NCBI GenBank assembly: GCA_019119975.1
Contig: DWVZ01000150.1
Span: forward strand, 4,311 to 68,310
Direction: 5' to 3'
DNA from: Candidatus Blautia merdavium
GTDB lineage: Bacteria > Bacillota > Clostridia > Lachnospirales > Lachnospiraceae
Length of the DNA stretch: 64,000 bases
In this document: one piece after another, positions 7,105 through 48,732 of the stretch
Numbering within the stretch: the first letter of the stretch is position 1
How the letters are laid out: every line of letters begins with the position of its first letter
Notes under the pieces: generated by a model
Databases searched by the model: none
What the model was told of the DNA's origin: nothing
The model's input: only the letters and a program-made list of their open reading frames with translations
Position numbers and translations under genes: made by a program

Positions 7105-7776
7105 CTATTTTCCTGCCTTTTCCTTGTATAAACGGAGGATCTCCTCTTTCACCTCCTGGATGCCCATATGGGAAGAATCCACCAGCACCGCGTCTTCTGC
7201 CTGCTTTAAGGGAGAAATTTCCCGGGTCATGTCTCTTTGGTCTCTGTCATTGATATCTGCTTCAATCTCCTCCAGGACGCAGGGGATCCCTTTTTCCTCC
7301 AGCTCCCGGCATCTTCTTAACGCCCGGGTATGGGCGCTTGCGGTAAGATAAATCTTCACATCTGCCCCGGGCAGGACGCAGGTACCGATATCCCTTCCGT
7401 CCATCACCACATTTTCTCTTGCTGCAAGCTGCCGCTGCAGCTGTACCAGCTTTTTGCGTATGGCAGCGTTTGCAGAGCTTACCGAAGCCATATTCCCCAC
7501 TTCCTCCTGCCTTAAAAGCCCGGTGACGTTCTCTCCGTTTAAGAGCACCTGTTGGGCACCCTCCTGGTAAACGATGGAAATATCCGCCTGTTCACATGCC
7601 TTTTCCATCCCTGGGGTATCCTGCGGCGAAATCCCTTTCTGGATCAGATAGAGCGCCATAGCACGGTACATGGCTCCCGTATCCACATAGATAAATCCCA
7701 GTTCTTTTGCCACAGCCTTCGCTATGGTGCTTTTTCCGGCTCCTGCCGGTCCGTCGATCGCAATATTAAATGACAT
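7105..7776 (-). CDS. cmk: Cytidylate kinase
   Basis: The sequence MSFNIAIDGPAGAGKSTIAKAVAKELGFIYVDTGAMYRA carries the Cmk P-loop. ATG 7776 has an AAAGGAG RBS 8 nt upstream; the longer start at 7797 overlaps the upstream gene. Confidence 0.92.
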   Translation of the reverse strand: MSFNIAIDGPAGAGKSTIAKAVAKELGFIYVDTGAMYRAMALYLIQKGISPQDTPGMEKACEQADISIVYQEGAQQVLLNGENVTGLLRQEEVGNMASVSSANAAIRKKLVQLQRQLAARENVVMDGRDIGTCVLPGADVKIYLTASAHTRALRRCRELEEKGIPCVLEEIEADINDRDQRDMTREISPLKQAEDAVLVDSSHMGIQEVKEEILRLYKEKAGK

Positions 7777-23094: not shown

Positions 23095-23124
23095 ATTATA
23101 TAGTACGGTTCTTCTTTCTGTCAA
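23095..23124 (-). promoter_or_regulatory. Candidate sigma-A promoter of the trp operon leader
   Basis: On the minus strand: TTGACA (23124-23119), 18-nt spacer, TATAAT (23100-23095). The -35 box overlaps the stop codon of the adhesin gene (23121-23123). Confidence 0.6.
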
Positions 23125-30065: not shown

Positions 30066-31039
30066 CGCTTCTCTCCTTTCTCCATAGCCTTTAATTTGTT
30101 CAGACATTTTTTCACATACTGGCTCAGCAAAAGAATTGCCAGAGAATACAGGTACGGTTCCAGGTCTTCTTTTCCCTGAAACTTCCCTGCTTCGATCATC
30201 TCTCCCACCTTTTCTGTACTGAGGACCTCTCCTGCGATCACGTTGCGGTCAATGCCGCCCATGCGGAATAAGGTCTGCAGATAGGACTCAAATTTTTCCT
30301 CCTCCTTTTCCCGGACACCGGAAAAAATACGGTCCGGATACTGCACCGTTGACTCCAGTATTTTCCGGAACTCTTTCTGATGTTCCTTCCTTTCCCCTGG
30401 CAAAAGCCCGGTCCCTACTTCTTCTCCTGTACTTTCCCACAGCTGGTTTCCTTCCCCGGCGCAGCGGCACAAAAGTCTGTATTTCTCATCCGGTCTGACC
30501 AAAATCCCCCGATTCTCCGCTTCCAGCAATACGATGCAGATCTGGCTGATCCCCATAAACTGCCAGTTCTTATAATTTCTTGCGTTCTCACAGATCTGAA
30601 CAAAGGGGATCTCTGCCTTTCCGTCCAGGAAACGGCAGTCCTCCCGGAATCCGCAGTGCAGCAGATACCAGAAGCTGATCCATGCCTTCTCACACCGTTC
30701 GTCTTCCCTTCCCCGGATGTCCTCCAGCATCCCCAGAATTGCCTGTGCGCACGGATACTCTTCGTACCCCAGACTTCCCCAGAAATACTCTCCCTGGTAA
30801 ATGCTCCGCCTTGCGTTTTGCTCCAGGTAGATCCGCCATTCTTTTTTCATATCCCGGATTTTCTCCCTGCATCTTACATTCTGGCACATGGCATAGAGAA
30901 TAAAATACGTCACATCTAAAAACCCTCCGTCCTGTACCGGCAAGCGGACTCCTCCATAGGAACCCTCCTCTTCCAGCCGGGCTGCGGGCTCTCTTTCCCA
31001 CACCTGCAGCCCCTGGAACAAAATACCTGTTTTTCTCAT
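30062..31039 (-). CDS. Hypothetical cytoplasmic protein (325 aa), translationally coupled to the adhesin gene
   Basis: ATG 31039 follows AAAGAGG. The stop TGA overlaps the adhesin ATG (ATGA at 30062-30065). There is no signal peptide or TM segment. The protein is rich in Cys, Trp and charged residues. I recognised no domain. Confidence 0.65.
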   Translation of the reverse strand: MRKTGILFQGLQVWEREPAARLEEEGSYGGVRLPVQDGGFLDVTYFILYAMCQNVRCREKIRDMKKEWRIYLEQNARRSIYQGEYFWGSLGYEEYPCAQAILGMLEDIRGREDERCEKAWISFWYLLHCGFREDCRFLDGKAEIPFVQICENARNYKNWQFMGISQICIVLLEAENRGILVRPDEKYRLLCRCAGEGNQLWESTGEEVGTGLLPGERKEHQKEFRKILESTVQYPDRIFSGVREKEEEKFESYLQTLFRMGGIDRNVIAGEVLSTEKVGEMIEAGKFQGKEDLEPYLYSLAILLLSQYVKKCLNKLKAMEKGEKR

Positions 31040-33161: not shown

Positions 33162-34391
33162 TCAGCCTACCGTTTTCCACTGATATTCTCCATTATCTTT
33201 GATCCCGTAAAAATCACCAAAGTTCAAATCAAAGATATCCTTTTCGATTCCGGTAATAGAAATCTGGTTTTTGATCAGATACTGCCAGATTCCCGCATGG
33301 GAAATGTCTCCCTGCAGGATCACGCCTGCTACCTTTCCCTCTCTTAAAATGACTCGTTTATAATTGTGGGAATCCTCTCTGGCGATGACCACATCTCCTT
33401 CTTTTGAAAGGATCTCACCCACACACATAGAAACAAGCCCGAAGAAATTAATGGTATTTTTCAGCGCATACCGGTCTTCATACAGCACCTGGGCACCGCA
33501 CATATTCAATGCGGCGGTTTCTCCCTGCTTCTGGGCGTTTGGCCAGATGCCGGAAAGCCCGGTCACATCTCCTGCCGCATACACGTCCGGAGCGCCTGTC
33601 TGCAGATATCCGTTGACCTGGATCCCTCTGTCAATGACAATGCCTTCGCCGTCCATGCCAGCCACTGCGCTGCGCACGCCTGCTGCCACAAGGATCATAT
33701 CGCAGGGAAGCGCTTCTCCGTTATCCAGGATCAGTTCCGTGATCTTTTTGTTTTCATCCATCCTGGTATCCGCGCCTTTTCTTCCCAGATAAAAGACAGC
33801 TCCGGCAGCCTCAAAGCGCTTCTGGTACTCTGCCGCGCCGGTCTTATCCAGCTGCACCGGCAGGATCTGCTCTGCCATCTCGACAATGGATACCTTCTTT
33901 CCGGTCTCCATCAGTCCGTATGCCGCATCCAGTCCTACCAGACCGGAGCCGATGATGACAATGTTTTCTGCTTTTTCTGCCATTTTGCGGATCGCCTGGG
34001 CATCTCTTAAATGACGAAGTCCAAAGACATTTTCTGCCTCTCTTAAATTCCCTACCGGAGGGATAAAACTTTCAGCTCCGGTGGCGATCAGAAGCTTATC
34101 GTAGTTTAAAACCTCCCCGTTATCCAGGATTACTGTCTTTTCTTTCGTATCCAGCTTGCCGGCGGTTTTTCCTGCGATCCAGCGGATGCGGTTCTTTTCA
34201 AAGAAATCTTCCTCCACGAAATTTAACTGTTTTTCGTCTCTCTCACCGCTTAAATATTTGTGCAGCATACAGCGGGAATGCACATAGATATCCGTGGAAA
34301 CTACCGTAATGCTGCCGTCTTTGTCTGCTTTCCGGATGGTTGCCGCGGCTTTCATCCCTGCCGCTCCGGCGCCTAAGATCACGTATTCCAT
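33162..34391 (-). CDS. FAD/NAD(P)-dependent pyridine nucleotide-disulfide family oxidoreductase (CODH-associated FNOR type)
   Basis: Two Rossmann motifs (VILGAGAAGMKAA; VIIGSGLVGLDAA) and AAGDV. It starts 3 nt after the cooF stop. Confidence 0.85.
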   Translation of the reverse strand: MEYVILGAGAAGMKAAATIRKADKDGSITVVSTDIYVHSRCMLHKYLSGERDEKQLNFVEEDFFEKNRIRWIAGKTAGKLDTKEKTVILDNGEVLNYDKLLIATGAESFIPPVGNLREAENVFGLRHLRDAQAIRKMAEKAENIVIIGSGLVGLDAAYGLMETGKKVSIVEMAEQILPVQLDKTGAAEYQKRFEAAGAVFYLGRKGADTRMDENKKITELILDNGEALPCDMILVAAGVRSAVAGMDGEGIVIDRGIQVNGYLQTGAPDVYAAGDVTGLSGIWPNAQKQGETAALNMCGAQVLYEDRYALKNTINFFGLVSMCVGEILSKEGDVVIAREDSHNYKRVILREGKVAGVILQGDISHAGIWQYLIKNQISITGIEKDIFDLNFGDFYGIKDNGEYQWKTVG

Positions 34392-34394
34392 ATG

Positions 34395-34841
34395 CTACAC
34401 CTCCTCAACCCAGATTGCCTGCTTGGGACAGGCTTTGACACAGCTGGGATCTTCCCCTTTGTCTATGCAGAAATCACATTTGATGACTTTGCTCTTTGTA
34501 CTTTCGTCCGGCTTTAATACGCCGTAAGGGCAGTTCATGACACACATAAAGCAGGAGCCGCATCTCTCCTTGTCATACTGTACATGACCGGTCTTTTCAT
34601 CCTTGGTCAGAGCGCCGCTCATACAGGACATAACGCACTCCGGCTGGTCACAATGCCTGCAGAACACCGGTGTATAGCTGCCGTCCGGGTTCTTGTAGAT
34701 AAAGTTTCTCGACTCATTTCTGATATCGGTCAGATCCAGGGTATAGACATCGCCCTCATCTTCTCTGTGCGCCTGCATACATGCGATGGAACAGCTCTTG
34801 CAGCCATCGCACTTTGCAGCGTCTATCATAATTCTTTTCAT
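34395..34841 (-). CDS. cooF: CooF-type 4Fe-4S ferredoxin
   Basis: 148 aa with multiple ferredoxin Cys motifs (CDGCKSCSIAC, CRHCDQPECVMSC, CGSCFMCVMNCP, CDFC...C..ACP). It starts 14 nt after the cooS stop. Confidence 0.85.
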   Translation of the reverse strand: MKRIMIDAAKCDGCKSCSIACMQAHREDEGDVYTLDLTDIRNESRNFIYKNPDGSYTPVFCRHCDQPECVMSCMSGALTKDEKTGHVQYDKERCGSCFMCVMNCPYGVLKPDESTKSKVIKCDFCIDKGEDPSCVKACPKQAIWVEEV

Positions 34842-34855
34842 CTTTTTTGCTCCTG

Positions 34856-36739
34856 TTAGATATTTAAACCTGCACGCTTTTCTTCAATGATCTGATCCAG
34901 GATATCCGCACTTTCTTTGGCATCCGGATTGATGATGACCTGTCCGCCTGTCAGTGTCTTCATATCCTCTGTCAGAAGTTTTACGGCAGTCTTGCTGCCA
35001 GTCACAAACGGCGGCAGTCCCAGATGCAGGGGCAGTCCTAAAGCCAGTCCGAAGCATCCGTCCGCCAGCGCCTGCTCTTCCAGCCACTGAGCGGCAGAAA
35101 GAACCAGAGGAAGCTGCGGGATATCTACGCCGATGGCTTCTGCCAGCTCGGTCGCCACGATCTCCAGTCTTCCGATGGCAAGGCAGGGACCAAAGTTCAG
35201 TACCGGAGGAATATTTAATTTCTCACAGACTGCACGCAGCTTAGGACCTGCGTATTTGGCAGCTTCCGGTGTCATCAGTCCGCAGTTTTCGATACCGCCT
35301 GAAGAACATCCGGCAGTCAGTACCAGGATATCTTTTGCGATCAATTCTTTTGTCAGTTCTACGGAAAGGACGTCATGTCCGCCTGCGGTCAGATTGGAGC
35401 AGCCTACCACGCCTGCGATTCCCTTGATATCGCCGGAAACGATCAGGTCGATCAGCGGCTTCCAGTTTCCGCCCAGGAAGTCTTTCAGGGAAATCTCTGA
35501 TACACCGGTCAGGGTGTGGTCGTTTCCGTGTTCCGGCATCAGGTTCATGGGTACCTGACCCCTTCTTTCCTTGTATGCTTCGATGATCTCGTCAATGATC
35601 TCTTCACTCTGTTTTTCTCTTTCTTCAAACACATAAGGCTTCAGCTCTGCGTTTGCTTTCTTTGCCACATCATCCAGACAGATCTGTTTGATCTTCAGCT
35701 GGTCGCAGATAGGCTCGATTCCCGGCAGAGTACAGTTAAACTCAGACAGCACCGCGTCAATTCCTCCGGTTGCCAGAACAGCTTCACTGGTGTAGTTGTT
35801 TCCTGCGTGTCCGTCAAAGACTTCCGTATAATGTGCGCCCCTAAGCTGCAGGTCCTGTCCCACACAGGTACATCCTACCAGCTTAAAGCCCTTTGCTCCC
35901 GCTGCCTTTGCTTTTGCCACTGCTTCCGGAGAAACCAGGCGTTCCTGGAGATCTACGAAAATGGTATGCTGGTGTCCGGTGATCATAATGTTGATGTAAT
36001 CCGGATCGATCACCCGCAGGCCTACCGGAGCCATGCGAAGTTCCGGCTCTCCTAACAGCACATCGTTTAACAGGTTGGTCAGAGTCAGTCCGTAAAGCCC
36101 GGTGGAGATTCCCAGCTTCAGGCAGTCGGTGTACATATCTACAGGATCGGAGTTTAAGTTGGTGGAGCATTTTACCACTCCGTGGAATACTTCGCCTTTG
36201 GCGCCGCCGGGAAGGATTCCCAGTTCCTGCCATTTTTTAAATCTTGGCGCATAGGCAAGCTTTTCTACCAGTTCCATTTTCTCATATTCCGGTTTGTACA
36301 GATCCTTTAATACCAGGTCTGCTACCTGCTTTGCAGTGTCCCATTTGTCGGCGCCCTGTACGCCGAAGGTTTCGGCAAGTCTTGCCAGAGATTTTTCTCC
36401 TTTGATCTCTCCTTTGGCTTCTGCTGTTTTCTTTACATTCAGGGCTGTATTTTCCACGATGTGGATGTAGCAGCCGGAACCGCTCGCCACTGCGCGCAGG
36501 AAATTTCTTGCCACGATCACATCTGCCGTAGCGCCGCAGATTCCTCTGGGAGCCTTTGGTGTGATCCGGCAGGGACCATTGGAGCACAGACGGCAACAGA
36601 CACCCTGAAGCCCAAATCCGCATTTGGTGCTCTGACCTTCTACACGGTGATGAGAGGTCTCCATGGGAAGGTCACGGATAAATCCTTCCAACGGCTTGTC
36701 TGCACTGGGGCAGGTACTGCATGAAAAACACTGATTCAT
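34856..36739 (-). CDS. cooS: Anaerobic Ni-Fe carbon monoxide dehydrogenase catalytic subunit
   Basis: The CooS signature is present: CGFGLQGVCCRLCSNGPCRI....GICGATADVIVARNF, followed by C-cluster region motifs. ATG 36739 (MNQCFSC) is preceded by an AGGAGGAAG RBS; the ORF-track extension to 36808 overlaps the upstream gene. Confidence 0.92.
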   Translation of the reverse strand: MNQCFSCSTCPSADKPLEGFIRDLPMETSHHRVEGQSTKCGFGLQGVCCRLCSNGPCRITPKAPRGICGATADVIVARNFLRAVASGSGCYIHIVENTALNVKKTAEAKGEIKGEKSLARLAETFGVQGADKWDTAKQVADLVLKDLYKPEYEKMELVEKLAYAPRFKKWQELGILPGGAKGEVFHGVVKCSTNLNSDPVDMYTDCLKLGISTGLYGLTLTNLLNDVLLGEPELRMAPVGLRVIDPDYINIMITGHQHTIFVDLQERLVSPEAVAKAKAAGAKGFKLVGCTCVGQDLQLRGAHYTEVFDGHAGNNYTSEAVLATGGIDAVLSEFNCTLPGIEPICDQLKIKQICLDDVAKKANAELKPYVFEEREKQSEEIIDEIIEAYKERRGQVPMNLMPEHGNDHTLTGVSEISLKDFLGGNWKPLIDLIVSGDIKGIAGVVGCSNLTAGGHDVLSVELTKELIAKDILVLTAGCSSGGIENCGLMTPEAAKYAGPKLRAVCEKLNIPPVLNFGPCLAIGRLEIVATELAEAIGVDIPQLPLVLSAAQWLEEQALADGCFGLALGLPLHLGLPPFVTGSKTAVKLLTEDMKTLTGGQVIINPDAKESADILDQIIEEKRAGLNI

Positions 36740-36778
36740 TCTTTCTTCCTCCTGTGTATGTATAAAATCTTTGTTAAT

Positions 36779-36808
36779 AGTGTAACAATATTGGACTAAA
36801 TTAGTCAA
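36779..36808 (-). promoter_or_regulatory. Possible internal promoter in front of cooS
   Basis: On the minus strand: TTGACT (36808-36803, containing the AAA gene stop codon), 18-nt spacer, TACACT (36784-36779). The -10 box is weak, so this is tentative. Confidence 0.3.
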
Positions 36809-38370
36809 GTATAACTTTCGCTTTTTTCCATTCTTTCCCTTTCTTCCTGTTCATAGAACCGGCGGATTTCCTGTTTCAGAGTCTCTTCTCTCTGGCTGCG
36901 AAGAAGGCATTCCCCTTTTTCCAGATAAATATCGCATCCGTACTCTCCAATGAACCCCATGATATCCGGGTCCTCAGAAATCCTGGTAAGGAACAGCGCT
37001 GCCTCCTGCCCTGCGCCCGGATTCTCTGTGGCAAAGCAGATCCCTCTTTTAAGCGCCAGCTCCAGCTCCTCGCTTTTCTTCTTAAGCCTTACGGTTTCCC
37101 TGTAGAAATCCTGCTTCACCTGTTCAAATCCCTGCTGCTTATTAAGGATCCTGTTTTTTCTGACCTCTAAGAGCTCTTTTCCCAGCCAGCGGTCCAGCCG
37201 TTCCATCCAGGCTGCCTGTTCTGCCTCCAGAAGTCTCTGCTCTTTCAGCACCTTCTGTTTTTGTTTCAGCTCCTGCACAAAATCTTCCAGGATCCGGTCA
37301 AATTCCCGGTTTTCCGGCTCCTGTTTTACAATCTCTTTCAGCTTCGCCAGCTCCTGGTGGAGGAAGGAATCGTACCGCTCTTCTCTTCGATACTCCCGCG
37401 CCCTGGTCTGCAGGGCTGCTTCCAGAAAGCTTAAGACCGCGATCCTTTCTTCAAACCCTGCCTGCGCATACAGCCGGCTGGCTTCCTGGTTCTCTCCGGC
37501 ATCTTTCTCCAATATTTTTTCCGGTTCATACTCCTCCTGATAAGTGGCGCACAGGGTATAGAAATCGGAAAATTCCCCGGCTGTTTCCTTTTCCTGAAGG
37601 TACTGGGCAATCAGCTCCCGGGATACCGGGAGCTCTAATTCTTCATACTCCAGAAGCATTCTGGACAGATCCTCCCAGCCTCTGGCAGTGACGAAGGAAA
37701 CGCCCTCTCTGTCGTCTTCCACCTTGTAAAAACGGTCTTTGCGGATATCCAGATACGCCCATATGGAAGGGTGGACGCCATGCTTTACCGCATACTGTCT
37801 CCACACAGGATAATCCTCTTCCACCACAATCTTTTTCACCCTGTCTAAGGTGACGATGTCAAAATCTCTGGCAGTTTTATTATACTGGGACGGATTTCCG
37901 GCAGCTACAATGAGCCAGCCTTTGGGCAGCTTATGAGTGCCAAAAGTTTTCTGCTGAAGGAACTGGAGCATGGTAGGCGCCAGGGTTTCGGACACACAGT
38001 TGATCTCATCCAGAAATAAAATGCCTTCTTTCACTCCGGTTTCCTCCATACACCCATAAACCGATGCTACAATCTCGCTCATGGTATATTCTGTCACCGT
38101 ATATTCTCTTCCCTCAAAAATCTTTTTGCTCAGCACCGGAAGCCCTACCGCGCTCTGTCTGGTATGGTGGGTGAGGGTGTATTCCACCAGTCCGATGCCC
38201 ATCTCTTTGGCAATCTGCTTCATGATCGCCGTCTTGCCGATTCCCGGCGGTCCCATAAGCAGCACCGGACGCTGATGCACCGGAGGAATTTTATAGTTTC
38301 CGTCTGCATCCTTTGCCGTATATGCCTTTATGGTATTTTCAATCTCCTCTTTTGCCTGCCCGATATTCAT
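36805..38370 (-). CDS. AAA_5 (MoxR-class, CbbQ/NorQ/GvpN-like) ATPase with a ~260-aa coiled-coil C-terminal extension
   Basis: Walker A LLMGPPGIGKTA, Walker B GILFLDEIN, sensor-1 VAAGNP, and arginine TLDRV. Residues from ~260 to 521 are E/K/R/L-rich heptad-like sequence. It starts 9 nt after the stop of the VWA gene. Confidence 0.88.
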   Translation of the reverse strand: MNIGQAKEEIENTIKAYTAKDADGNYKIPPVHQRPVLLMGPPGIGKTAIMKQIAKEMGIGLVEYTLTHHTRQSAVGLPVLSKKIFEGREYTVTEYTMSEIVASVYGCMEETGVKEGILFLDEINCVSETLAPTMLQFLQQKTFGTHKLPKGWLIVAAGNPSQYNKTARDFDIVTLDRVKKIVVEEDYPVWRQYAVKHGVHPSIWAYLDIRKDRFYKVEDDREGVSFVTARGWEDLSRMLLEYEELELPVSRELIAQYLQEKETAGEFSDFYTLCATYQEEYEPEKILEKDAGENQEASRLYAQAGFEERIAVLSFLEAALQTRAREYRREERYDSFLHQELAKLKEIVKQEPENREFDRILEDFVQELKQKQKVLKEQRLLEAEQAAWMERLDRWLGKELLEVRKNRILNKQQGFEQVKQDFYRETVRLKKKSEELELALKRGICFATENPGAGQEAALFLTRISEDPDIMGFIGEYGCDIYLEKGECLLRSQREETLKQEIRRFYEQEERERMEKSESYT

Positions 38371-38379
38371 ATTCTGTTC

Positions 38380-39690
38380 TCACTCCTGTATCATTTGCTC
38401 TTTTTCCTCTGCGTCCTGCTCTTTTTGGGGAAGATACATCAGTTCTGCCCATGCCGGCACATTCGCCTCCCTGGGCGGTTCTTTTGTCAAAAGAAAGGTG
38501 GTCTTATAAGAAGGCTCTTCCAAAGGATAAATGCCGTCTCCGTCTGTGAAATAAAGAAGCCCTTTTAAATTCTGAAACTCCCCTTCCTTGATCAGCTGAT
38601 CCAGATAGCGGAACACCGGACGGAAATCGGTGCCTCCCCTTCCCTGGATCCTGATGTTCTTCAGGTAATCTTTCCACTCTTTTTCACAGGTCAGCACCGC
38701 ATCCTCCTGGATATAACAGTCGCACTGGATCACATGGATGTTTATTTTCCGAAAGAAGTTCTCCTGCCCGCTTAAGATGCTCCAGGTTTCCTCCAGAAAT
38801 CTCTGTACCTGGGCACGGCGGCAGGAGCTGGAGGTGTCAATGGCAATGACAAGCTCCTCTGTCTTTCTGGCTTCCGTGTATTCCAGATGCTCGATCAGCG
38901 GAAGATTTCCATACCGTTTCAGCCCATAAAGATAGGGGATATAGTCAAAGCTTTCCTTGTCCGTCTGAAGTTCTTCCCGCTCCACGAAATATCTTCGCAG
39001 AAATCTCCGGAAATCCCGTTTTCTCTGCTCCTGGACTTGATACCATTCCTTTTTTTCTCCCGGCAGGCTTCCCCGCCTGCCGATGCCTGCCTTTCCCTGC
39101 CCCTGCACGCCTGCATGGACCAAACCTGCACTTTTCAGGATCCTCTGCAGTTCCTTCTCCCCTGGCTTTTTCCAGAATTTATGACTGTCTGCATGAAAAA
39201 GCCTTTCCCATCTCTGTATGGTCTCACAAGAGAGCTCCAGTTCCCAAATCCTGCGGCAAAGCTCCTCCTGACTGAGATAATCCTTTCCCTGCCAGAGGCT
39301 GCGGCAGATGTCTTCTGCTTCCTGTGACATCCTTCCTGTCAGGGACACCAGTTCCATGCAGTCAATAGTATACTCCGCGCTGATGTCCCATGCCAAATGA
39401 CGGAGTCTGCTGTCCTTGTCTTTTTCCTCCGCCAGATTCAGGTAGAGCACGTGAAAAAGCATATGAAAAAGCAGCCGGTTCACCCCTCTTTGTCCTTTTT
39501 CTTCATAAAGGGAAAACAGGCTGTCTGCGTGGTAATAAATCCTGGTTCCATCGGTTCCTGTCTCTCTTCCCGGGACAAATTCCCGAAAAATCTCCTGTAC
39601 GGCTCTTCCCAAAGTCCCGGTGCAGACAGCCTCCTGGACTGCCTGCTCCCAGATGCTCTGGGCAATTTCTTCCTTGGTCCTCATATTCAC
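38380..39690 (-). CDS. DUF2201-type protein: N-terminal metallopeptidase-like domain (degenerate HExxH) plus C-terminal VWA domain
   Basis: The N-terminal region has LLFHMLFHVLYL where the family carries HExxH. The C-terminal VWA has an intact MIDAS motif (AIDTSSS ... GRGGTDF ... YFTDGDG). ATGA overlap with the upstream small gene. Confidence 0.82.
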   Translation of the reverse strand: MNMRTKEEIAQSIWEQAVQEAVCTGTLGRAVQEIFREFVPGRETGTDGTRIYYHADSLFSLYEEKGQRGVNRLLFHMLFHVLYLNLAEEKDKDSRLRHLAWDISAEYTIDCMELVSLTGRMSQEAEDICRSLWQGKDYLSQEELCRRIWELELSCETIQRWERLFHADSHKFWKKPGEKELQRILKSAGLVHAGVQGQGKAGIGRRGSLPGEKKEWYQVQEQRKRDFRRFLRRYFVEREELQTDKESFDYIPYLYGLKRYGNLPLIEHLEYTEARKTEELVIAIDTSSSCRRAQVQRFLEETWSILSGQENFFRKINIHVIQCDCYIQEDAVLTCEKEWKDYLKNIRIQGRGGTDFRPVFRYLDQLIKEGEFQNLKGLLYFTDGDGIYPLEEPSYKTTFLLTKEPPREANVPAWAELMYLPQKEQDAEEKEQMIQE

Positions 39691-40037
39691 AGCTCCCAGT
39701 TCTTTTCGTGAAATCCTTTGCCTGTTTTTTTCCTTCTCAGAAGCAGCATCTGCGCTTCCTGGTTCTTACAGGAAAGGGCGGTATCCAGGAACTGATCCAG
39801 CACTGCAGGCTCCGGCTGCAGTTCCTCAAGCAGCTGTTCCAGCTTCCTGTTTTCTCCCTGCCGGATCAGCTCCTGGGCTGCCGGACGCAGGCGCAGGGAC
39901 AGGTAGTTTCCATAGCGTTTTTTCAGCTCTTCTTCCTGGGGCAGAAGTTCAAAATACCGCTGCAGGGCAATCTCTAATTTCTTTGCCGCCTGTTTGGTCG
40001 TCAGGAAAATCTCATCCTCTTTTTTCATGGCATCCAT
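39687..40037 (-). CDS. Small helical hypothetical protein (116 aa)
   Basis: AGGAGG RBS 8 nt before ATG 40037. The stop overlaps the VWA gene start. Composition suggests an all-helical protein. I recognised no domain. Confidence 0.6.
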   Translation of the reverse strand: MDAMKKEDEIFLTTKQAAKKLEIALQRYFELLPQEEELKKRYGNYLSLRLRPAAQELIRQGENRKLEQLLEELQPEPAVLDQFLDTALSCKNQEAQMLLLRRKKTGKGFHEKNWEL

Positions 40038-40070
40038 GTTTTTCGCCTCCTGTGCGCCTGACCTTTTTTC

Positions 40071-40826
40071 TTAGAATTTCTCTGAAAAATATTCCCACAG
40101 CGCCTGATTGGTCCTCTCATTGATCCGCAGATCTTCCTCCTTAGGCAAAGCGCTTCCATCCTGAGGGTCCTCCCCGCAGATATCCGCTCCCGCCGACTTC
40201 CTGCAGGAAAATGCCAGGTCAAGAAGGGCAAACAGCTGGGAAAGCGGGGTCTCTCCCTGGTCCCAGTTGGTCCTTGCTTCCTGACGGCAGAGAAGGTCTT
40301 TGTCAACGGAAACATACAAAGGAACCTGGGGATCTTCCCTTAAAAATGCCTCCAGCGTCTCTGTCTTTCCCTCTTTTAAATCCTCTGCGCAAAGAGCTGT
40401 CACCCGGCAAAGATCTTCCGGAGCACATTCTGCGAACGCCTTTTTCGGCGGTCCCACGATGCAGATCTTTCGGACCTTTTCATTGGTATCCAGCACTTCT
40501 TTTACCCAGCTTCCGCAGGAGAGCAGACCGAAAAAGGCAGATTCCTGCATGTCTGTATGCTGGTCGAATACTAATAGGTCGCAGGGCTGTTCCAGCTTGT
40601 CCAGCCAGAATTTGCTCAGATAATGATAGTTCCCCGAATCTAGAAAGTGCAGCCCTAAAGGAGAACAGCCGGCAATCTGCCGTTTGATTTCCTCCTCCGC
40701 CTCCTGGGTGCAGTAGCAGTTCACGCCCTGCATCCGGGTAAAATCTATCCAGATGTGTTCCTTATCTCTGTAAAAATCTTCCTCTGCGTAAACGCCGGAA
40801 AAATTCATGATCACGGTTTCTTTCAT
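40071..40826 (-). CDS. Divergent arginase/ureohydrolase-fold (possibly UPF0489-like) protein
   Basis: Order and spacing of motifs resemble the binuclear-metal ureohydrolase fold. The three motifs are DSGNYHY (GGDHS position), LLVFDQHTDM (DAHxD position) and LYVSVDKDLL (SxDxD position). ATG 40826 forms an ATGA overlap with the upstream Fe-S gene. Confidence 0.55.
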   Translation of the reverse strand: MKETVIMNFSGVYAEEDFYRDKEHIWIDFTRMQGVNCYCTQEAEEEIKRQIAGCSPLGLHFLDSGNYHYLSKFWLDKLEQPCDLLVFDQHTDMQESAFFGLLSCGSWVKEVLDTNEKVRKICIVGPPKKAFAECAPEDLCRVTALCAEDLKEGKTETLEAFLREDPQVPLYVSVDKDLLCRQEARTNWDQGETPLSQLFALLDLAFSCRKSAGADICGEDPQDGSALPKEEDLRINERTNQALWEYFSEKF

Positions 40827-42151
40827 ACGTCTTTCCTGTTCTCTTTTTCCTTTTTCTTTCTGCTCCACTGCATCTGGCAGGACAAAAGCTTATCCAGATA
40901 GATAGACTTAAACTGTTTGCTGGCAAGCGCCTGTTTCAAAGGCGGCAGCTTTAAAATAGTCCCGAAGACCGCAGCCATTGCCCTGTGATTGGCAAACGCC
41001 TGATTATCAAAGACCAGGTTCTGTAAGGTTCCCTTTTCGATTGCCTGCAGTACAAAGCGGTGAGTGCTGTTCACCGGGGTGATCACCTGAATGGGACGTC
41101 TCTGCAGTGTCAGGGAATGGTTGGGGCAGTTGGAAGCACAGACCCCGCAGCCCAGACAGATTTCCGCATTTAAAACAGGACGTTTCACCGTCTTTTCCCC
41201 CATCTGCTTTTCTTCCATGGTGAGGGCAAAGATCGGACATGCTTTGGCGCATTTCCCGCAGCCGATGCAGGTCTCTTCCTGTATTTCAGGAATGTAGTTG
41301 GTAGTTGCCACTGGCTGCATGGGCGCAAACCTTCTGGCTGCCTGGAGCGCTTCACAGCAGCAGCCGCAGCAGTTGCAGATAAACGCCGGATTTTCCCTTA
41401 CGTTTTCTCCGATCTGTACCAGATTGGAAGCATAGGACCGCTCCAGGGCATCCATGGCTTCTGCTTTGTCAATGAGCCTTGCATGTCCTCCGTGCTCTGC
41501 CAGGGACCGCGCCACATTTCCAAAGGTCAGGCACACATCCCAGGGCGCGTCGATCTCGCAGGGATGTCCTGCATGATAGGCTTTGTGGCGGCAGTAGCAG
41601 AGTCCCAGACCGATGTAATCCGCTTCCTCAATGATGTGGCTGGCTCTCTCATGATCCAGGATATGGAGGGTATTTTCATTGGTCAGCACCGGCTCCTGTA
41701 CATAAACTCTTCCCAGCTTGGTCTCTGTTGCCCAGAACAGGTCCTTTACAAAGTCTTCCTCCACATTCATATACTGATAATACAGTTCACTTAAATATTT
41801 CTGGTCAATGTCGCCTCGGGTGCGCATCAGGGCAAACTCAATAAAGCCTGCCATAGGCGGCGGCATGACAAAACGGCGGACTCCCTTATACTCAGAGTCT
41901 ACCAGAAGGGCTTTCTCACACAGGTGGTCCAGCACCTTCTCCGCATGCGCTTCTGAAGTTCCCCAGATCTTGGCTGCACGGGTGATGGTAAAGGGGCGCA
42001 CCGGAAGCATTGCCACCCATTTCGCCTCCCGTTCTTCGTACAAAACCTGCAGGATCTTATAAAAGGTTTCGCTGGCAGGGGCGCCCTGGGTAAACCAGTT
42101 AATACGCTCCTCCAGATTTTTATATGCGTCTTTTGAAGTAATATGTCCCAT
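40823..42151 (-). CDS. Fe-S protein with a CNCCGCCC motif and a 2x[4Fe-4S] ferredoxin domain
   Basis: Motifs: LGLCYCRHK..., FICNCCGCCCE, CIGCGKCAKACP, CLGCGVCASNCP. ATG 42151 (MGHITSKD) follows an AGGAGAG RBS. A basic C-terminal tail overlaps the next gene. Confidence 0.75.
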   Translation of the reverse strand: MGHITSKDAYKNLEERINWFTQGAPASETFYKILQVLYEEREAKWVAMLPVRPFTITRAAKIWGTSEAHAEKVLDHLCEKALLVDSEYKGVRRFVMPPPMAGFIEFALMRTRGDIDQKYLSELYYQYMNVEEDFVKDLFWATETKLGRVYVQEPVLTNENTLHILDHERASHIIEEADYIGLGLCYCRHKAYHAGHPCEIDAPWDVCLTFGNVARSLAEHGGHARLIDKAEAMDALERSYASNLVQIGENVRENPAFICNCCGCCCEALQAARRFAPMQPVATTNYIPEIQEETCIGCGKCAKACPIFALTMEEKQMGEKTVKRPVLNAEICLGCGVCASNCPNHSLTLQRRPIQVITPVNSTHRFVLQAIEKGTLQNLVFDNQAFANHRAMAAVFGTILKLPPLKQALASKQFKSIYLDKLLSCQMQWSRKKKEKENRKDV

Positions 42152-42201
42152 ATGTTCTCTCCTGTCAATCTGCAAATAATCGGTTTTCGCATCTATGTTT
42201 T

Positions 42202-42230
42202 ATTGTATCACGTTTTTTTTCTTTTTCAAA
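42202..42230 (-). promoter_or_regulatory. Candidate sigma-A promoter of the Fe-S/arginase-fold/VWA/AAA operon
   Basis: On the minus strand: TTTGAA (42230-42225), 17-nt spacer, TACAAT (42207-42202), about 50 nt upstream of ATG 42151. Confidence 0.5.
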
Positions 42231-42332
42231 GTTTTCTATATTTGAAGTTTTCCGCCTTTGAATCCAGGTATATTTTTCCCCGAAAAGGAAATGCTATTTT
42301 CAGAAATCATGATCCACAAGGAGGCTACAAAA

Positions 42333-42524
42333 ATGGAAAACACTTCAGCAAATTCACCAGAAAGAAAAGAAGCAAAAAAGCCGGAAATGCTCTGCCCGGG
42401 CAAAGACTTTAAGCTTGCAGAACTGCCGGATTCCTGCGTCAGCCAGATCCACAAATTCGAGCAGGAACTCAACAGCCACGGCTACTGGAACATTGCCCTG
42501 GTAGCTTATCAGAAAAACAGCTGA
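42333..42524 (+). CDS. Small hypothetical protein (63 aa)
   Basis: AAGGAGG RBS 8 nt before ATG 42333 (MENTSANSPE...). It is divergent from the Fe-S operon. I recognised no domain. Confidence 0.5.
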   Translation: MENTSANSPERKEAKKPEMLCPGKDFKLAELPDSCVSQIHKFEQELNSHGYWNIALVAYQKNS

Positions 42525-45438: not shown

Positions 45439-46674
45439 TTACACTATTTCTCTGGAAAAGTCTACCCTGTCTGCCTGTTTCATTTCCTGCTCCTGCGCCC
45501 GGGTGCAGGGTACGCTGCTGTATCTTGCCTGCTCATAGATCTGGTGCAGACGCTCCCTTTCAGCAGAAGGCTTCAGCCCTGCCTGCTCCTCCAGTTCTTT
45601 AGGTGTTTCCGTACCGGAGGGCTTAGTCTTCCCATATTTCAGGATCTGCTGCCTGTAATATCGGCGGATCCTTTCCTTTGCACTGTATTTATGAAAAAAT
45701 CCGATGACTTTACGCCTTGGTCTCAGTCGTTCTCTTTTTTCTTTTCCCGCTGCTTCGATGGACTCCAGCACATCTCCGTTCTCACTGCGTCCGGCTTCGT
45801 ATCTGCGGTACAGCCAGATGATGAAATACACCACTCCTGCCAGAAATGCCAGGATCACTGCGGCGACCAGCAGCTTTTCCACTGCCTGGAAAAGCGCATG
45901 CAGGAAAGCGGGCATTTGCCCTTCTTCTGCCTTGGGGAAGGGATTCTGGGCGTCCTGGGTCATCATCTGTTCCTCATAGGTACTGTCGCTTTCCAGCCCC
46001 CGCAGCAGCCAGGAAAAGAATGACCGCAGCAGGTATCCCAGTCCGTAGATCCCCTGGCGCAGCCCTGAAAAAGGCAGAAATGCCATGCCTGCCAGGGTAG
46101 CAAGGGTGATCAGCCCAAGCAGCAGACGGTTATTTCCCATGATGGCGCTTTGGGGAAACCTGTGCAGCTTCTGGTTTTCCCGGCATACCCAGAGAACTGA
46201 CTCCCGGTTGCCCACCCAAAGGATCAGCAGCCAGTAAAGCACGGCTGCGCACAAAGCTGTATACTCCAGCAGTGTCCTCTGGAGATACAGACTATAAAAA
46301 TAGACCGCAGCAAATACGCCGAGAAACGGATATTCCGGTCTGCACAGGATCCCATACACATCACGGACCCGGTCCGCGAAATAGCCAAAGGCGATCATTG
46401 CGGTAAAGACTGCAAGCCCTGCCTTCTCCAGCAGACTGCTTCCCACAAGCCAGCCGCCCCAGAGGAAAACACCGGTAAAGAAAAAATAACTCCAGATATG
46501 CTTTCCCTTTTCCTTATTCCAGTACAGACCAAAAACCGGGAGCAAAAAATACAGGGCTTTCAGCAGCTGCCCGGCATCTGCTGCCTTCGACAGAGACAAG
46601 AGGGCAAAATACAGCACAGCTGTCAAAAGCCAGGCATGGATACCTCCATAAAGAGTCAAAAGCCGGTCTCTCAT
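45439..46674 (-). CDS. Polytopic membrane protein with a C-terminal DUF4129 domain
   Basis: About 8 TM helices, then a cytoplasmic tail with the DUF4129-type pattern (RRYYRQQILKYG....ETPKELEE....IYEQARYS). It is the third gene of the MoxR-DUF58 operon. No transglutaminase Cys-His-Asp core is evident. Confidence 0.75.
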   Translation of the reverse strand: MRDRLLTLYGGIHAWLLTAVLYFALLSLSKAADAGQLLKALYFLLPVFGLYWNKEKGKHIWSYFFFTGVFLWGGWLVGSSLLEKAGLAVFTAMIAFGYFADRVRDVYGILCRPEYPFLGVFAAVYFYSLYLQRTLLEYTALCAAVLYWLLILWVGNRESVLWVCRENQKLHRFPQSAIMGNNRLLLGLITLATLAGMAFLPFSGLRQGIYGLGYLLRSFFSWLLRGLESDSTYEEQMMTQDAQNPFPKAEEGQMPAFLHALFQAVEKLLVAAVILAFLAGVVYFIIWLYRRYEAGRSENGDVLESIEAAGKEKRERLRPRRKVIGFFHKYSAKERIRRYYRQQILKYGKTKPSGTETPKELEEQAGLKPSAERERLHQIYEQARYSSVPCTRAQEQEMKQADRVDFSREIV

Positions 46675-46917
46675 CCTTTCTTCACCTCCCAGCGGATCAC
46701 CTGCATAGTTCTGCTGTTTCTGACCTTCAGTTCCATTTCCGGATAAAGAGCTGCCAGAAAGACGCAGCCCTGATTCTTCCTTCTCAGCTCTTCCATAGCA
46801 AGGACAAGCTCCTCATACTGGTTCCTGGTGATCAGGATGCAGAATGCCTCTTCTGACAGCAGCCCGTTCTTCCTGGCTGCCAGACACTGGGAAAATTTTC
46901 CCGGCGCTTTATTCAGA
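46671..46917 (-). pseudogene. Out-of-frame C-terminal part of the DUF58 gene (frameshift or split gene)
   Basis: The frame offset from the DUF58 ORF reads LNKAPGKFSQCLAARKNGLLSEEAFCILITRNQYEELVLAMEELRRKNQGCVFLAALYPEMELKV...KKG. It ends in a TGA that overlaps the ATG of the DUF4129 gene (ATGA at 46671-46674). No usable start codon precedes it. Confidence 0.6.
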
Positions 46918-47797
46918 CCATCCTGGACAGGCTCTGCAAAATCCTGGTGCTCTGCCCCTTGCCGGCTCTGGCTGGCACACAGATCTCTTCCCCGGATACA
47001 CAGTCCCTGCCGTTGCTGATCACGCCGGTTTCTATCCCTCTGCCAAGGAACTCCTCTGCCAGAGCGGCAGCGATCCGGATGCCGGTTTCGTGGAGCTCTT
47101 CGTATTTCCAGATAGTCTCATCCTCCACATCCAACAGCAGCCAGACCTTTCCGGCAGTGGTGGAATCCTGCATATTTACCATATAGGTTCCGGTTCTGGC
47201 GCTTGCTTTCCAGTTGATGCGGTTCATGGGATCTCCCGGTGCATACTCCCGGATACCCCGGAAGGTAAAGGGATCCTCCAGCAGCCGTTTTCTCTCTTCC
47301 AAAACTCCGCTGAGCTTCTGGAACAGCTCCGCAAAGTTCTGTCCGCTCTCTTTCTTCGGATACACGTATAAATAGGTGCTGACCGGGCAGGTACTGTACA
47401 GCTCTCCGGACATCAGAGGCCCCTTCGTGAACAGCTCGGTCTGGGTGATCTCGTAATACCCTCGCTTTAAGGCGCTAAACGACACCTGCCGGATGATCCT
47501 CTGCCAGCTCATGACGGAAAAGATATCTCTCTTATAGGTATTGTCTGACACACTGGCATTCTCTTCTTCGGAAAAACTCAGATTCCGGTTCACCATAAAG
47601 CCCGCCTGGAGCATAGGCAGAAACAGCCATTTCCTGTTTTCAATGATCTCGGTCAGAGTTCCCTCTTCTCCTTCTGTCACAGCTGTCTCCTCAAAATGAA
47701 GTGTCATCCGAAGCTGCCTGTCCCAGTTTTTCTTATAGTACACGCCTGCCAGGTACTGGATCAGAACAGCTCCCAGCAGCACCAGCAGTATCGTCAT
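46913..47797 (-). CDS. DUF58-family protein (MoxR-associated, VWA-like); apparently truncated by a frameshift
   Basis: N-terminal TM helix and the DUF58 signature FRGIREYAPGDPMNRINWKASAR. ATG 47797 overlaps the moxR stop (ATGA). It stops prematurely at 46913 within the VWA-like region. Confidence 0.8.
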   Translation of the reverse strand: MTILLVLLGAVLIQYLAGVYYKKNWDRQLRMTLHFEETAVTEGEEGTLTEIIENRKWLFLPMLQAGFMVNRNLSFSEEENASVSDNTYKRDIFSVMSWQRIIRQVSFSALKRGYYEITQTELFTKGPLMSGELYSTCPVSTYLYVYPKKESGQNFAELFQKLSGVLEERKRLLEDPFTFRGIREYAPGDPMNRINWKASARTGTYMVNMQDSTTAGKVWLLLDVEDETIWKYEELHETGIRIAAALAEEFLGRGIETGVISNGRDCVSGEEICVPARAGKGQSTRILQSLSRMV

Positions 47798-48732
47798 CTT
47801 CCATTTCCCCAATCTTCCGTGGGAACAGGCACCTGTCCCAGGATTTTTTCTATCAGTTCTTTTTCTCTTCCGGCTCCCGTCCCCAGGATCAGCCTGTGGG
47901 CAAGCACCGGAACTGCCAGGGTCTTAATATCCTCTGGTACCACGTAGGTCCGCCCCTGCACATAAGCATACGCCTTTGCAGACTGGAAAAAAGCAATACT
48001 GCCTCTGGGACTTACCCCGCCCAGGATCTCTCCGTTTTCACGGGTTGCCCTTACCAGCTCCAGCAGATACTCCTGCAGCTCCGGGTGCACAGAAACCTCC
48101 CGGAATTCTTTCTGCGCTTTTTTCAGTTCTTCCGAACTGCAGACCGGTTCCAGCTCCAGCAGAGGGTCTGCTTTGTCAAACCGCTCCAGAATGGCAAGCT
48201 CCTCCTCTTTTGTGGGCATCCCCAGGGAAAGCCGCATCAGGAAACGGTCCATCTGTGCCTCCGGAAGAGGAAAGGTTCCTGCATTTTCTATGGGATTCTG
48301 GGTCGCTATGACGAAAAAAGGCTCCTCCAGCTTCCTGGTCACTCCGTCTGTGGTGATCTGTCCCTCTTCCATACATTCCAGGAGACTGGACTGGGTCCTG
48401 GGCGCGGCACGGTTGATCTCATCCCCCAGAAGAATGTTGGTAAATGCCGGACCTTCCCGGAATACAAACTCTCCCTTCTTCTGGTCATAATAATTCAGTC
48501 CCGTCACATCGGAGGGCAGCAGATCCGGGGTAAACTGCACTCTGGAAAACCGGCAGTCTACAGATCTTGCCAGCGCCTTTGCCAGCTTGGTCTTGCCTGT
48601 CCCGGGCACGTCCTCCAACAGAACATGACCTCCCTCCACCAGGGCAGTCAGGATCAGATCGATCACCTTTCTTTTTCCAACGATTACCTTCTCAATGTTA
48701 TCTCCTGCTTTTTTTAAAATATTTTCGTTCAT
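47794..48732 (-). CDS. moxR: MoxR-family AAA_3 ATPase
   Basis: Walker A LLEDVPGTGKTK, Walker B NILLGDEINRA, and the conserved FxVxATQNP (FFVIATQNPIE) motif. Confidence 0.92.
   Translation of the reverse strand: MNENILKKAGDNIEKVIVGKRKVIDLILTALVEGGHVLLEDVPGTGKTKLAKALARSVDCRFSRVQFTPDLLPSDVTGLNYYDQKKGEFVFREGPAFTNILLGDEINRAAPRTQSSLLECMEEGQITTDGVTRKLEEPFFVIATQNPIENAGTFPLPEAQMDRFLMRLSLGMPTKEEELAILERFDKADPLLELEPVCSSEELKKAQKEFREVSVHPELQEYLLELVRATRENGEILGGVSPRGSIAFFQSAKAYAYVQGRTYVVPEDIKTLAVPVLAHRLILGTGAGREKELIEKILGQVPVPTEDWGNGR

Follow-up and report, generated by a model that had tools for sequence, protein, structure and literature searches.

A Conserved Three-Gene MoxR/VWA Cassette Beside a Carbon Monoxide Dehydrogenase Cluster in Candidatus Blautia merdavium: Probably an Autonomous Unit in a Variable Chromosomal Slot

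Overview

We analyzed a 64,000-nt stretch of the Candidatus Blautia merdavium genome (GenBank assembly GCA_019119975.1, contig DWVZ01000150.1, positions 4,311 to 68,310 of the forward strand; hereafter the window), in which five minus-strand genes lie directly upstream of a carbon monoxide dehydrogenase (CODH) cluster consisting of cooS, cooF, and a FAD/NAD(P) oxidoreductase (FNOR) gene. The five encode an Fe-S protein, an arginase-fold protein, a 116-aa helical-repeat protein (h116), a DUF2201-type VWA protein, and an AAA_5/MoxR-like ATPase. A preliminary description of the locus had treated them as one module that could mature or reactivate the CODH in place of CooC. Comparison with related loci revealed that the five genes are three units: an exchangeable Fe-S/nitroreductase gene, an arginase-fold enzyme, and a three-gene cassette of helical-tail protein, VWA protein, and ~500-aa AAA_5/MoxR-like ATPase. 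This cassette is the conserved unit, and the window carries a short-form member of it. We consider it probable that the region is a mosaic of independent units in one variable slot, and that the cassette is an autonomous MoxR/VWA remodeling system whose synteny with the CODH is a matter of chance. Gene order, conservation, gene fusions, motifs, and the dissociability of the cassette from cooS, all observed directly among the related genomes, carry this reading.

Extent and Distribution of the Cassette

Related loci were gathered with the ATPase as query, using one genome per species (GTDB). Relatives of the ATPase were found in at least 564 species genomes, mostly of the Lachnospiraceae and Oscillospiraceae plus the Eggerthellaceae, and the cassette occurs in genera such as Blautia, Faecalibacterium, Gemmiger, Oribacterium, Eggerthella, Butyrivibrio, and Agathobaculum. 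Neighbors were counted in the best 80 of these loci, up to 10 kb on each side. The VWA gene stands directly upstream of the ATPase gene in 76 of them. When the flanking open reading frames (ORFs) were clustered, the sole further recurrent neighbor was a ~320-aa protein with a leucine-rich repeat (LRR) domain of the LRR_5 family and a helical domain, encoded directly upstream of the VWA gene in 43 loci. Scored by a profile of the helical domain, this third component was present in 46 of the 65 loci with enough upstream sequence, and the gene order in cassette loci is third protein-VWA-ATPase.

The remaining genes of the locus do not travel with this trio. Only a single locus of the 80, that of Blautia hominis KB1, has cooS within 10 kb of the ATPase gene, with an alanine symporter gene in between; the Fe-S protein likewise has a counterpart near the ATPase in one locus, a weak 30% match, and an arginase-fold gene is found in two loci, 8 kb off and beside lgt. 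The five genes are therefore not one module, as only the helical-VWA-ATPase trio is conserved across species: the closest relative has a nitroreductase gene in place of the Fe-S gene, and the arginase-fold gene is usually elsewhere or alone. The cassette is flanked by ordinary metabolic, transport, regulatory, and housekeeping genes (111 flanking neighbors), and no cooS, cooC, integrase, transposase, restriction, or other mobile-element families are among the 25 families listed for its flanks.

Features of the ATPase and the VWA Protein

The ATPase (gene at 36805-38370, minus strand, 521 aa) matches the Pfam families AAA (39.7 bits, cut-off 21.2), AAA_5 (35.9 bits, cut-off 22), and bpMoxR (32.7 bits, cut-off 27). 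Its core spans approximately aa 30-190 and is followed by a conserved ~300-aa C-terminal extension, and its Walker A (GPPGIGKT) and Walker B (ILFLDEIN) motifs are invariant in the family alignment. A Walker A/B core together with AAA_5 and MoxR profile matches places the protein in the MoxR family of AAA+ ATPases. In a PDB sequence search, solved structures such as midasin and p97 matched the ATPase at the P-loop level only, and the same search with the VWA and arginase-fold proteins returned nothing useful.

The VWA protein (gene at 38380-39690 from a GTG start or 38380-39684 from an ATG start, minus strand, 434-436 aa) matches PF09967 with 48.4 bits (cut-off 26.4). Its VWA domain is C-terminal and contains an intact metal-ion-dependent adhesion site (MIDAS) motif, DTSSS...GGTDF...FTDGDG, which is conserved in 66 aligned sequences. 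The N-terminal domain resembles zincin metallopeptidases with the catalytic Glu absent: the family pattern is HxxxHCxxxH, the window protein reads HMLFHVLYLN, and M, S, I, or T occupies the Glu position of the HExxH motif of DUF2201_N throughout the same 66-sequence alignment. PF13203 was undetected in the window protein, and it is on record for the orthologue on contig L086 of a close relative. The papers on DUF2201 found by a literature search mention it without any account of its function.

The Third Component

The window encodes the short form of the third component, h116 (39687-40037, minus strand), for which a Pfam scan gave no significant family match. In a typical third component, a BspA-type LRR_5 domain precedes the helical domain; h116 is the helical domain alone, and its full length can be aligned with the last ~115 aa of LRR_5-helical proteins, which are ~320 aa long. 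Both forms share the C-terminal tail [KR]K-x-[FYW]-[DE]-L-COOH, with h116 ending in NWEL-COOH. An AlphaFold2 model of h116 (predicted local distance difference test score, pLDDT, 86) has seven helices and a disordered tail, and a fold search of PDB with this model found generic helical repeats only, with no match at E <0.2.

An exhaustive profile search of protein representatives placed 1130 clusters at 50% identity in the third-component family; it was used instead of a search of a word-indexed protein database, in which the helical-domain profile retrieved merely 15 short proteins. The N-terminal domains of 144 representatives were LRR_5 in 113, LRR_8 in three, and HAD_2 in one. The HAD_2-bearing representative (among P0256-P0399) adds to the arginase-fold fusions described below a second case in which the helical tail domain is attached to an enzyme.

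The Arginase-Fold Protein and Its Fusion to the Helical Domain

The arginase-fold protein (40071-40826, minus strand, 251 aa) matches PF00491 with 25 bits (cut-off 22). It keeps all six binuclear-metal ligand positions, H68 (GNYH), D88/H90/D92 (DxHTD), and D175/D177 (SxDKD), which were assigned by motif order and do not vary among 14 sequences with identities as low as 39%. Invariant motifs specific to the family are NCYC, SCGSW, TNWDQG, and CGE. In an AlphaFold2 model of a homologue fused to an h116 domain (pLDDT 87.7), the top 50 Foldseek matches were all ureohydrolases, including formiminoglutamase, agmatinase, proclavaminate amidinohydrolase, and guanidine and metformin hydrolases (probability 1.0, template-modeling score 0.41-0.61, about 0.5; identity 10-16%).

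Such fusions are recurrent. We found 1101 homologues of the arginase-fold protein, and among the best 120, twelve clusters (360-373 aa) are fusions of the arginase-fold and h116 domains. Their tails end in aromatic-x-[LF], such as SWEL, SWKL, and GWEF, in all 12 clusters except P0158. Identity between the fusion clusters is only 45-95%, so the fusion has persisted through long divergence, and the fusion examined in its locus adjoins the VWA-ATPase pair, directly upstream of it. Judged from these fusions, the functional link between the arginase-fold protein and the cassette appears real. It would point to the arginase-fold protein as a client or effector of the cassette rather than a metal handler for CooS, the role given to it in the preliminary description.

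Outside the lineage the picture is different. The arginase-fold gene stands alone, with clade-specific neighbors, in 67 of 80 metagenome loci surveyed, with no cooS within 8 kb there, so its link to the cassette is lineage-specific. A conserved partner of the protein outside the lineage was sought and none was found; its contexts differ by clade, and lgt is adjacent in 11 of the 80 loci.

One Variable Chromosomal Slot in the Blautia-Like Lineage

Contigs of close relatives (L numbers) hold all these genes in one slot, scpA-scpB-dacB ... tyrS, whose content varies. Nitroreductase, arginase-fold, h116, VWA, and ATPase genes followed by cooS-cooF-FNOR occupy it in L081 and L097/98; L090 has an arginase-fold::h116 fusion gene, VWA, ATPase, and cooS-cooF-FNOR; and L103 and L105-107 have arginase-fold and h116 (separate or fused), VWA, ATPase, and cooS-cooF-FNOR. 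The Fe-S, arginase-fold, beta-hydroxyacid-dehydrogenase-like, h117, VWA, and ATPase genes are found in this order in L086, up to the contig end. An abundant species (L093-95, L100, L102) carries nitroreductase, arginase-fold gene, and cooS-cooF-FNOR without the cassette, and L001 carries the dehydrogenase-like gene, h116, VWA, ATPase, an alanine symporter gene, and cooS without an arginase-fold gene. The cassette and tyrS are present without cooS in L003, and the arginase-fold gene occurs alone in L099, L101, and L104. With contents this varied, every pair of elements is separable, and because all cassette-cooS adjacency falls at this one syntenic locus, it counts as a single evolutionary observation.

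In L001 (7485-8378) and L086 (7534-8394), the beta-hydroxyacid-dehydrogenase-like gene (NAD_binding_2/NAD_binding_11) overlaps the start of h116 by 8-14 nt and occupies the place of the window's arginase-fold gene; its product is possibly another cassette partner. The contigs listed with a 57%-identical ATPase allele (L086-L089) all end ~350 bp past the ATPase gene, where cooS begins in relatives, and such a common end could mean that the ATPase-cooS junction varies between strains or contains a repeat.

The arginase-fold, h116, VWA, and ATPase proteins are 51-78% identical between relatives, and the flanks 84-99%. Shared co-divergence was at one point entertained as a definition of the unit, or as the sign of a recombining or fast-evolving block, and was dropped: dS is saturated everywhere (at least 0.85), and the ratio of nonsynonymous to synonymous substitution (dN/dS) is 0.05-0.13. 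These ratios, obtained for the h116, VWA, and ATPase genes against a relative with a 78%-identical ATPase, indicate purifying selection; dS was not computable for the arginase-fold gene. The lower identity of these four proteins is a matter of weaker constraint under purifying selection, not of a shared history, recombination, or positive selection.

The Fe-S protein (40823-42150, minus strand; 442 aa from its ATG, in an ORF that opens at TTG 42175) behaves differently: in L086 it is 92% identical, where the cassette proteins are 52-57% and ScpA 84% identical. Its N-terminal part of ~290 aa includes CNCCGCCC; a 2x[4Fe-4S] ferredoxin domain comes next, at aa 295-358 (Fer4 family matches, Pfam). 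The N-terminal part (CYCRH...C...CNCCGCCC) has no Pfam or NCBIfam match and yet shares this 92% identity in a relative with an 84%-identical ScpA; it is a strongly constrained, uncharacterized Cys-rich domain.

Relationship to the Carbon Monoxide Dehydrogenase

The cluster downstream of the cassette (33162-36739, minus strand; TIGR01702, then Fer4_11, then Pyr_redox_2 plus Rubredoxin_C) starts with cooS (34856-36739, minus strand; TIGR01702, 762 bits, cut-off 478), and tyrS comes after its FNOR-type flavoprotein gene. With cooS followed by genes for a CooF-type 4Fe-4S protein and a FAD/NAD(P) oxidoreductase, this is an FNOR-type Ni-CODH, a described CODH context (PMC6344411, PMC11338639). A network analysis grouped the FNOR type with CooF, an NsrR/IscR-like regulator, and unknown proteins, and CooC with Wood-Ljungdahl pathway (WLP) and energy-converting hydrogenase (ECH) clusters (PMC6344411). 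Among human-gut genomes, the FNOR type is present in 92 of 379 pCODH-encoding Lachnospirales, in which the WLP type is cooS-cooC-acsB and up to three pCODH genes occur per Blautia genome; any pCODH is found in 10.5% of Lachnospirales and 4.8% of Oscillospirales gut genomes (PMC11338639).

As had been noted before, no CooC-type ATPase is encoded in the window. A scan for the KGGxGK[ST] Walker A motif was empty in all six frames of the 64 kb, the P-loops in long ORFs are those of the AAA_5 protein and of a protein at 7752 only, and no CooC family appeared in Pfam or NCBIfam scans of the eight genes from the Fe-S gene to the FNOR gene. This absence is no anomaly, being the described norm beside FNOR-type cooS. 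Some CODHs need no maturase (PMC13056359), and the window CODH presumably matures like other FNOR-type CODHs, either with the help of a cooC at another genomic site or with no dedicated maturase.

The lead idea of the preliminary description was an alternative CODH maturase replacing CooC, in which the AAA+/VWA pair remodels CooS, the Fe-S protein gives electrons, and the arginase-fold protein handles metal. It draws on the shared strand and the 65-nt spacer without a terminator, on the missing CooC-type ATPase, on the recurrence of cassette-cooS adjacency in relatives with 51-78%-identical ATPases, and on the maturation of other metalloenzymes by MoxR/VWA pairs such as CoxD/E, NorQ/D, and CbbQ/O (summarized in PMC7159879). 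The comparative data go the other way. By the refuting condition set for it in that description, the idea fails: the ATPase/VWA pair is almost never syntenic with cooS (one of 80 species loci), adjacency is confined to a single syntenic lineage, and even there some cooS operons stand without the cassette. The pair thus shows neither the synteny nor the co-distribution with CODH across lineages that marks a client-specific maturase. The part of the supplement of the gut pCODH survey available to us has one Faecalibacterium metagenome-assembled genome (MAG) and no entries for Gemmiger, Butyrivibrio, Eggerthella, Oribacterium, or Agathobaculum (PMC11338639). The cassette is common in these genera, and its presence there, the one Faecalibacterium MAG apart, counts against a role in CODH maturation as far as that part of the supplement extends. 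The Fe-S protein was to serve as the reductant, a role without comparative support, as its gene is exchangeable with a nitroreductase gene. Furthermore, the canonical third component is an LRR protein and no metal handler, FNOR-type cooS clusters are normally without cooC, and AAA, VWA, and arginase neighbors go unmentioned in two CODH neighborhood surveys (PMC13056359, PMC11338639), the former a 2026 analysis of 1376 CODHs. We therefore regard this maturase as highly improbable. The fallback of the same description, an unrelated vWA-MoxR-type module adjacent by chance, is the one favored by the comparative data.

Some enzymes of the ureohydrolase fold are Ni-dependent. It could accordingly be proposed that the arginase-fold protein belongs with the cooS operon, as a metal-binding or small-molecule accessory, and that the cassette is an insertion between them. 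The abundant relative, in which the nitroreductase and arginase-fold genes are followed after 60 nt by cooS-cooF-FNOR with no cassette, speaks for this, and guanidinase and metformin hydrolase, from a fold with Ni-dependent members, are among the structural matches. We consider it very unlikely, given that cooS is missing within 8 kb of the gene in 67 of the 80 arginase-fold loci, that the h116 fusion ties the protein to the cassette, and that B. hominis has the cassette and cooS and no arginase-fold gene.

Conflict-System and Phage Readings

Another explanation would make the cassette an anti-phage or abortive-infection MoxR-vWA ternary system, in which the cytoplasmic LRR domain detects a protein of the invader and an effector is freed or activated by the ATPase/VWA pair, the arginase-fold hydrolase being that effector in the Blautia-like lineage. 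In having three components, the third with an N-terminal domain that varies (LRR_5, LRR_8, HAD_2, arginase-fold, or none), the cassette follows a logic similar to that of VMAP ternary systems, but this variation is low, with LRR_5 in 113 of 144 representatives, and gene order and domain content are unlike all four ternary classes of PMC7159879. The features of the VMAP type given there, namely its gene order, the VMAP-C/M domains, and an effector C-terminal to the vWA domain, were not found in the cassette. The proteins evolve faster than their flanks (51-78% versus 84-99% identity), yet at a dN/dS of 0.05-0.13 with no sign of diversifying selection. Close relatives are polymorphic for the presence of the cassette; at the larger scale, its wide and apparently stable spread across whole families is unlike that of patchy defense islands, and its neighbors are housekeeping genes, with no integrase, transposase, or restriction families among the 25 families listed.

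A search with PADLOC v2 returned no match for the Fe-S, arginase-fold, h116, or VWA proteins, and for the ATPase weak P-loop matches only, the best with an E-value of 2.5e-5 over ~55 residues. The ATPase and VWA protein do have distant similarity to the phage families phrog_1297 (2e-44) and phrog_1314 (6e-26), respectively, which would suit a conflict system. Taken together, we judge a conflict function to be unlikely. An origin of the cassette from phage was also considered and set aside: true phage relatives are ~25% identical over the ATPase core only, and the hits with 46% identity are unannotated fecal virome fragments of 4-15 kb.

A Proposed Autonomous Remodeling Cassette

For the cassette itself we infer the following scheme, in which the physical interactions and the remodeling step are all conjectural. 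The ATPase and the VWA protein would form a MoxR-type remodeling pair, to which the third protein would give specificity, its helical-repeat domain bearing the flexible conserved tail. This tail, [KR]K-x-[FYW]-[DE]-L-COOH, is proposed to dock either to the MIDAS of the VWA protein or to the ring of the ATPase. The N-terminal domain of the third protein would then bind the target or itself be the target; it is LRR_5 in most species, an arginase-fold enzyme in close relatives, and absent in h116. As the N-terminal domain is an arginase-fold enzyme in close relatives, the likeliest cassette partner in the window would be the arginase-fold enzyme encoded 33 nt upstream of h116.

Several observations weigh against an autonomous cassette with chance synteny. 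The cassette adjoins cooS in most contigs of the lineage (window, L081, L090, L097/98, L103, L105-107). The spacer between the ATPase gene and cooS (36740-36804, minus strand), confirmed as 65 nt long, contains a cooS ribosome-binding site (AGGAGG), a weak promoter-like match (TTGACT-18-TACACT at 36808-36779), and no terminator-like hairpin; co-transcription across the spacer is possible from this sequence, and together with the adjacency in the lineage it leaves room for a lineage-specific link to the CODH. The fusion of neighboring genes, on which the arginase-fold connection is founded, is suggestive of a functional link and falls short of proof. Approximately 30% of the loci, notably in Eggerthellaceae and several Butyrivibrio, are without a recognizable third component. 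We nonetheless regard the Fe-S protein and cooS-cooF-FNOR as neighbors of the cassette by synteny only; the tie to the CODH is without independent support, and even a lineage-specific one has little probability.

An extension of the autonomous-cassette reading seems rather doubtful. The LRR domain may have been swapped in the Blautia-like lineage for a compact ureohydrolase-fold metalloenzyme, of which the cassette would be the dedicated activase or metal-centre remodeler, possibly sharing a metal economy (e.g., nickel) with the CODH; the third-vWA-MoxR cassette with its aromatic-acidic-Leu docking tail would then represent an undescribed MoxR-vWA ternary class near-ubiquitous in gut Clostridia.

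These results have consequences for annotation. A missing cooC beside FNOR-type cooS calls for no new maturase, and neighboring AAA+/VWA genes should not carry a CODH-accessory annotation. Hundreds of gut Clostridia species, including abundant Blautia, Faecalibacterium, and Butyrivibrio, carry a cassette that has no assigned function and fits no described MoxR-vWA class. Its conserved C-terminal tail and the natural enzyme fusion, which names a candidate client, offer experimental handles.

Gene Layout and Other Features of the Window

The five tightly spaced minus-strand genes upstream of the CODH are real, and the domains first assigned to them and to cooS-cooF-FNOR were confirmed for seven of the eight genes. 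The ATGA overlap between the Fe-S and arginase-fold genes can be read directly in the sequence, the 33 nt between the arginase-fold gene and h116 hold a GGAGG, and the VWA and ATPase genes are separated by 9 nt, all as initially described. The ATGA overlap claimed for h116 and the VWA gene proved to be GTGA instead; with the ATG as the start of the VWA gene, the two genes are 2 nt apart. Upstream of the Fe-S gene, a sigma-70-like promoter match (42202-42229, minus strand; TTGAAA-16-TACAAT with a TG extension) exists as a consensus match, as had been reported, but such sites are not enriched in the sequence (12 found versus 9.0 +/- 2.8 expected from shuffles).

Divergent from the Fe-S gene, a small ORF at 42258-42524 on the plus strand encodes ~63 aa from its likely ATG and is without a Pfam family; its C-terminal half (CPGxxFKxAELPDSCxSQIHKFEQELNSHGYWNIALVAYQK) is strongly conserved in L081 and L086, where it occupies the same position. 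A second, canonical MoxR operon is located ~7 kb upstream (45439-48732, minus strand), with genes for an AAA_3 plus AAA_lid_2 MoxR protein (47794-48732), a DUF58 protein (46913-47812), and a DUF4129 membrane protein (45439-46674). Compared with the L081 orthologue, its DUF58 gene has a frameshift near 46916-46919 (tblastn frame switch at aa 293/295), which points to either a pseudogene or a sequencing error. The product of the gene at 23121-30107 (minus strand) is probably a surface adhesin: it is a secreted protein of 2328 aa, in which numerous ~100-aa units are repeated in tandem and a membrane anchor region lies at the C terminus.

Comparison With Known Systems

The sole likeness of the cassette to the CooC/CooT/CooJ system of Ni insertion is its position beside cooS in this lineage. 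CooC belongs to the MinD/ParA class of P-loop ATPases and has both a deviant Walker A and a CxC metal site, and none of the cassette proteins falls in the same family as CooC, CooT, or CooJ; in contrast to that system, the cassette is mostly found without cooS.

The cassette is closer to RavA-ViaA, CbbQ-CbbO, NorQ-NorD, CoxD-CoxE, and BchI-BchD, as it places an AAA_5/MoxR-like ATPase beside a VWA protein with an intact MIDAS. Coupling is tight, as in those pairs (9 nt in the window, adjacency in 76 of 80 loci), and by analogy its expected action would be ATP-driven remodeling of a protein held by the VWA domain. However, the cassette lacks conserved synteny with any client metalloenzyme, its VWA protein has a zincin-like N-terminal domain without the catalytic Glu, and it includes a dedicated third protein with LRR and helical tail domains. 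Its ATPase also carries a ~300-aa C-terminal extension and lacks the AAA_lid_2 match that the second, canonical MoxR of the window has.

A MoxR-vWA pair with a third protein is the plan of the MoxR-vWA ternary systems of the VMAP, iSTAND, FtsH, and beta-propeller types (Kaur et al. 2020, PMC7159879). Similar to these, the third protein combines a conserved helical module with a replaceable N-terminal domain, and the ATPase matches bpMoxR. The cassette order is third-vWA-MoxR and not VMAP-MoxR-vWA as in VMAP systems, no VMAP, iSTAND, FtsH, or propeller domain was detected in the cassette, no effector domain lies C-terminal to its vWA domain, and the diversity of its N-terminal domains is low. 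The hosts differ as well: the ternary systems of PMC7159879 belong to multicellular actinobacteria and cyanobacteria, whereas the cassette hosts are unicellular gut Clostridia.

The arginase-fold protein shares its fold and six metal-ligand positions with the ureohydrolases (arginase, agmatinase, formiminoglutamase, and guanidine and metformin hydrolases). It is set apart from them by its length of ~250 aa, its 10-16% identity to solved members, a marginal Pfam score, and motifs of its own, and, unlike them, it is fused in some lineages to the helical tail domain of the cassette.

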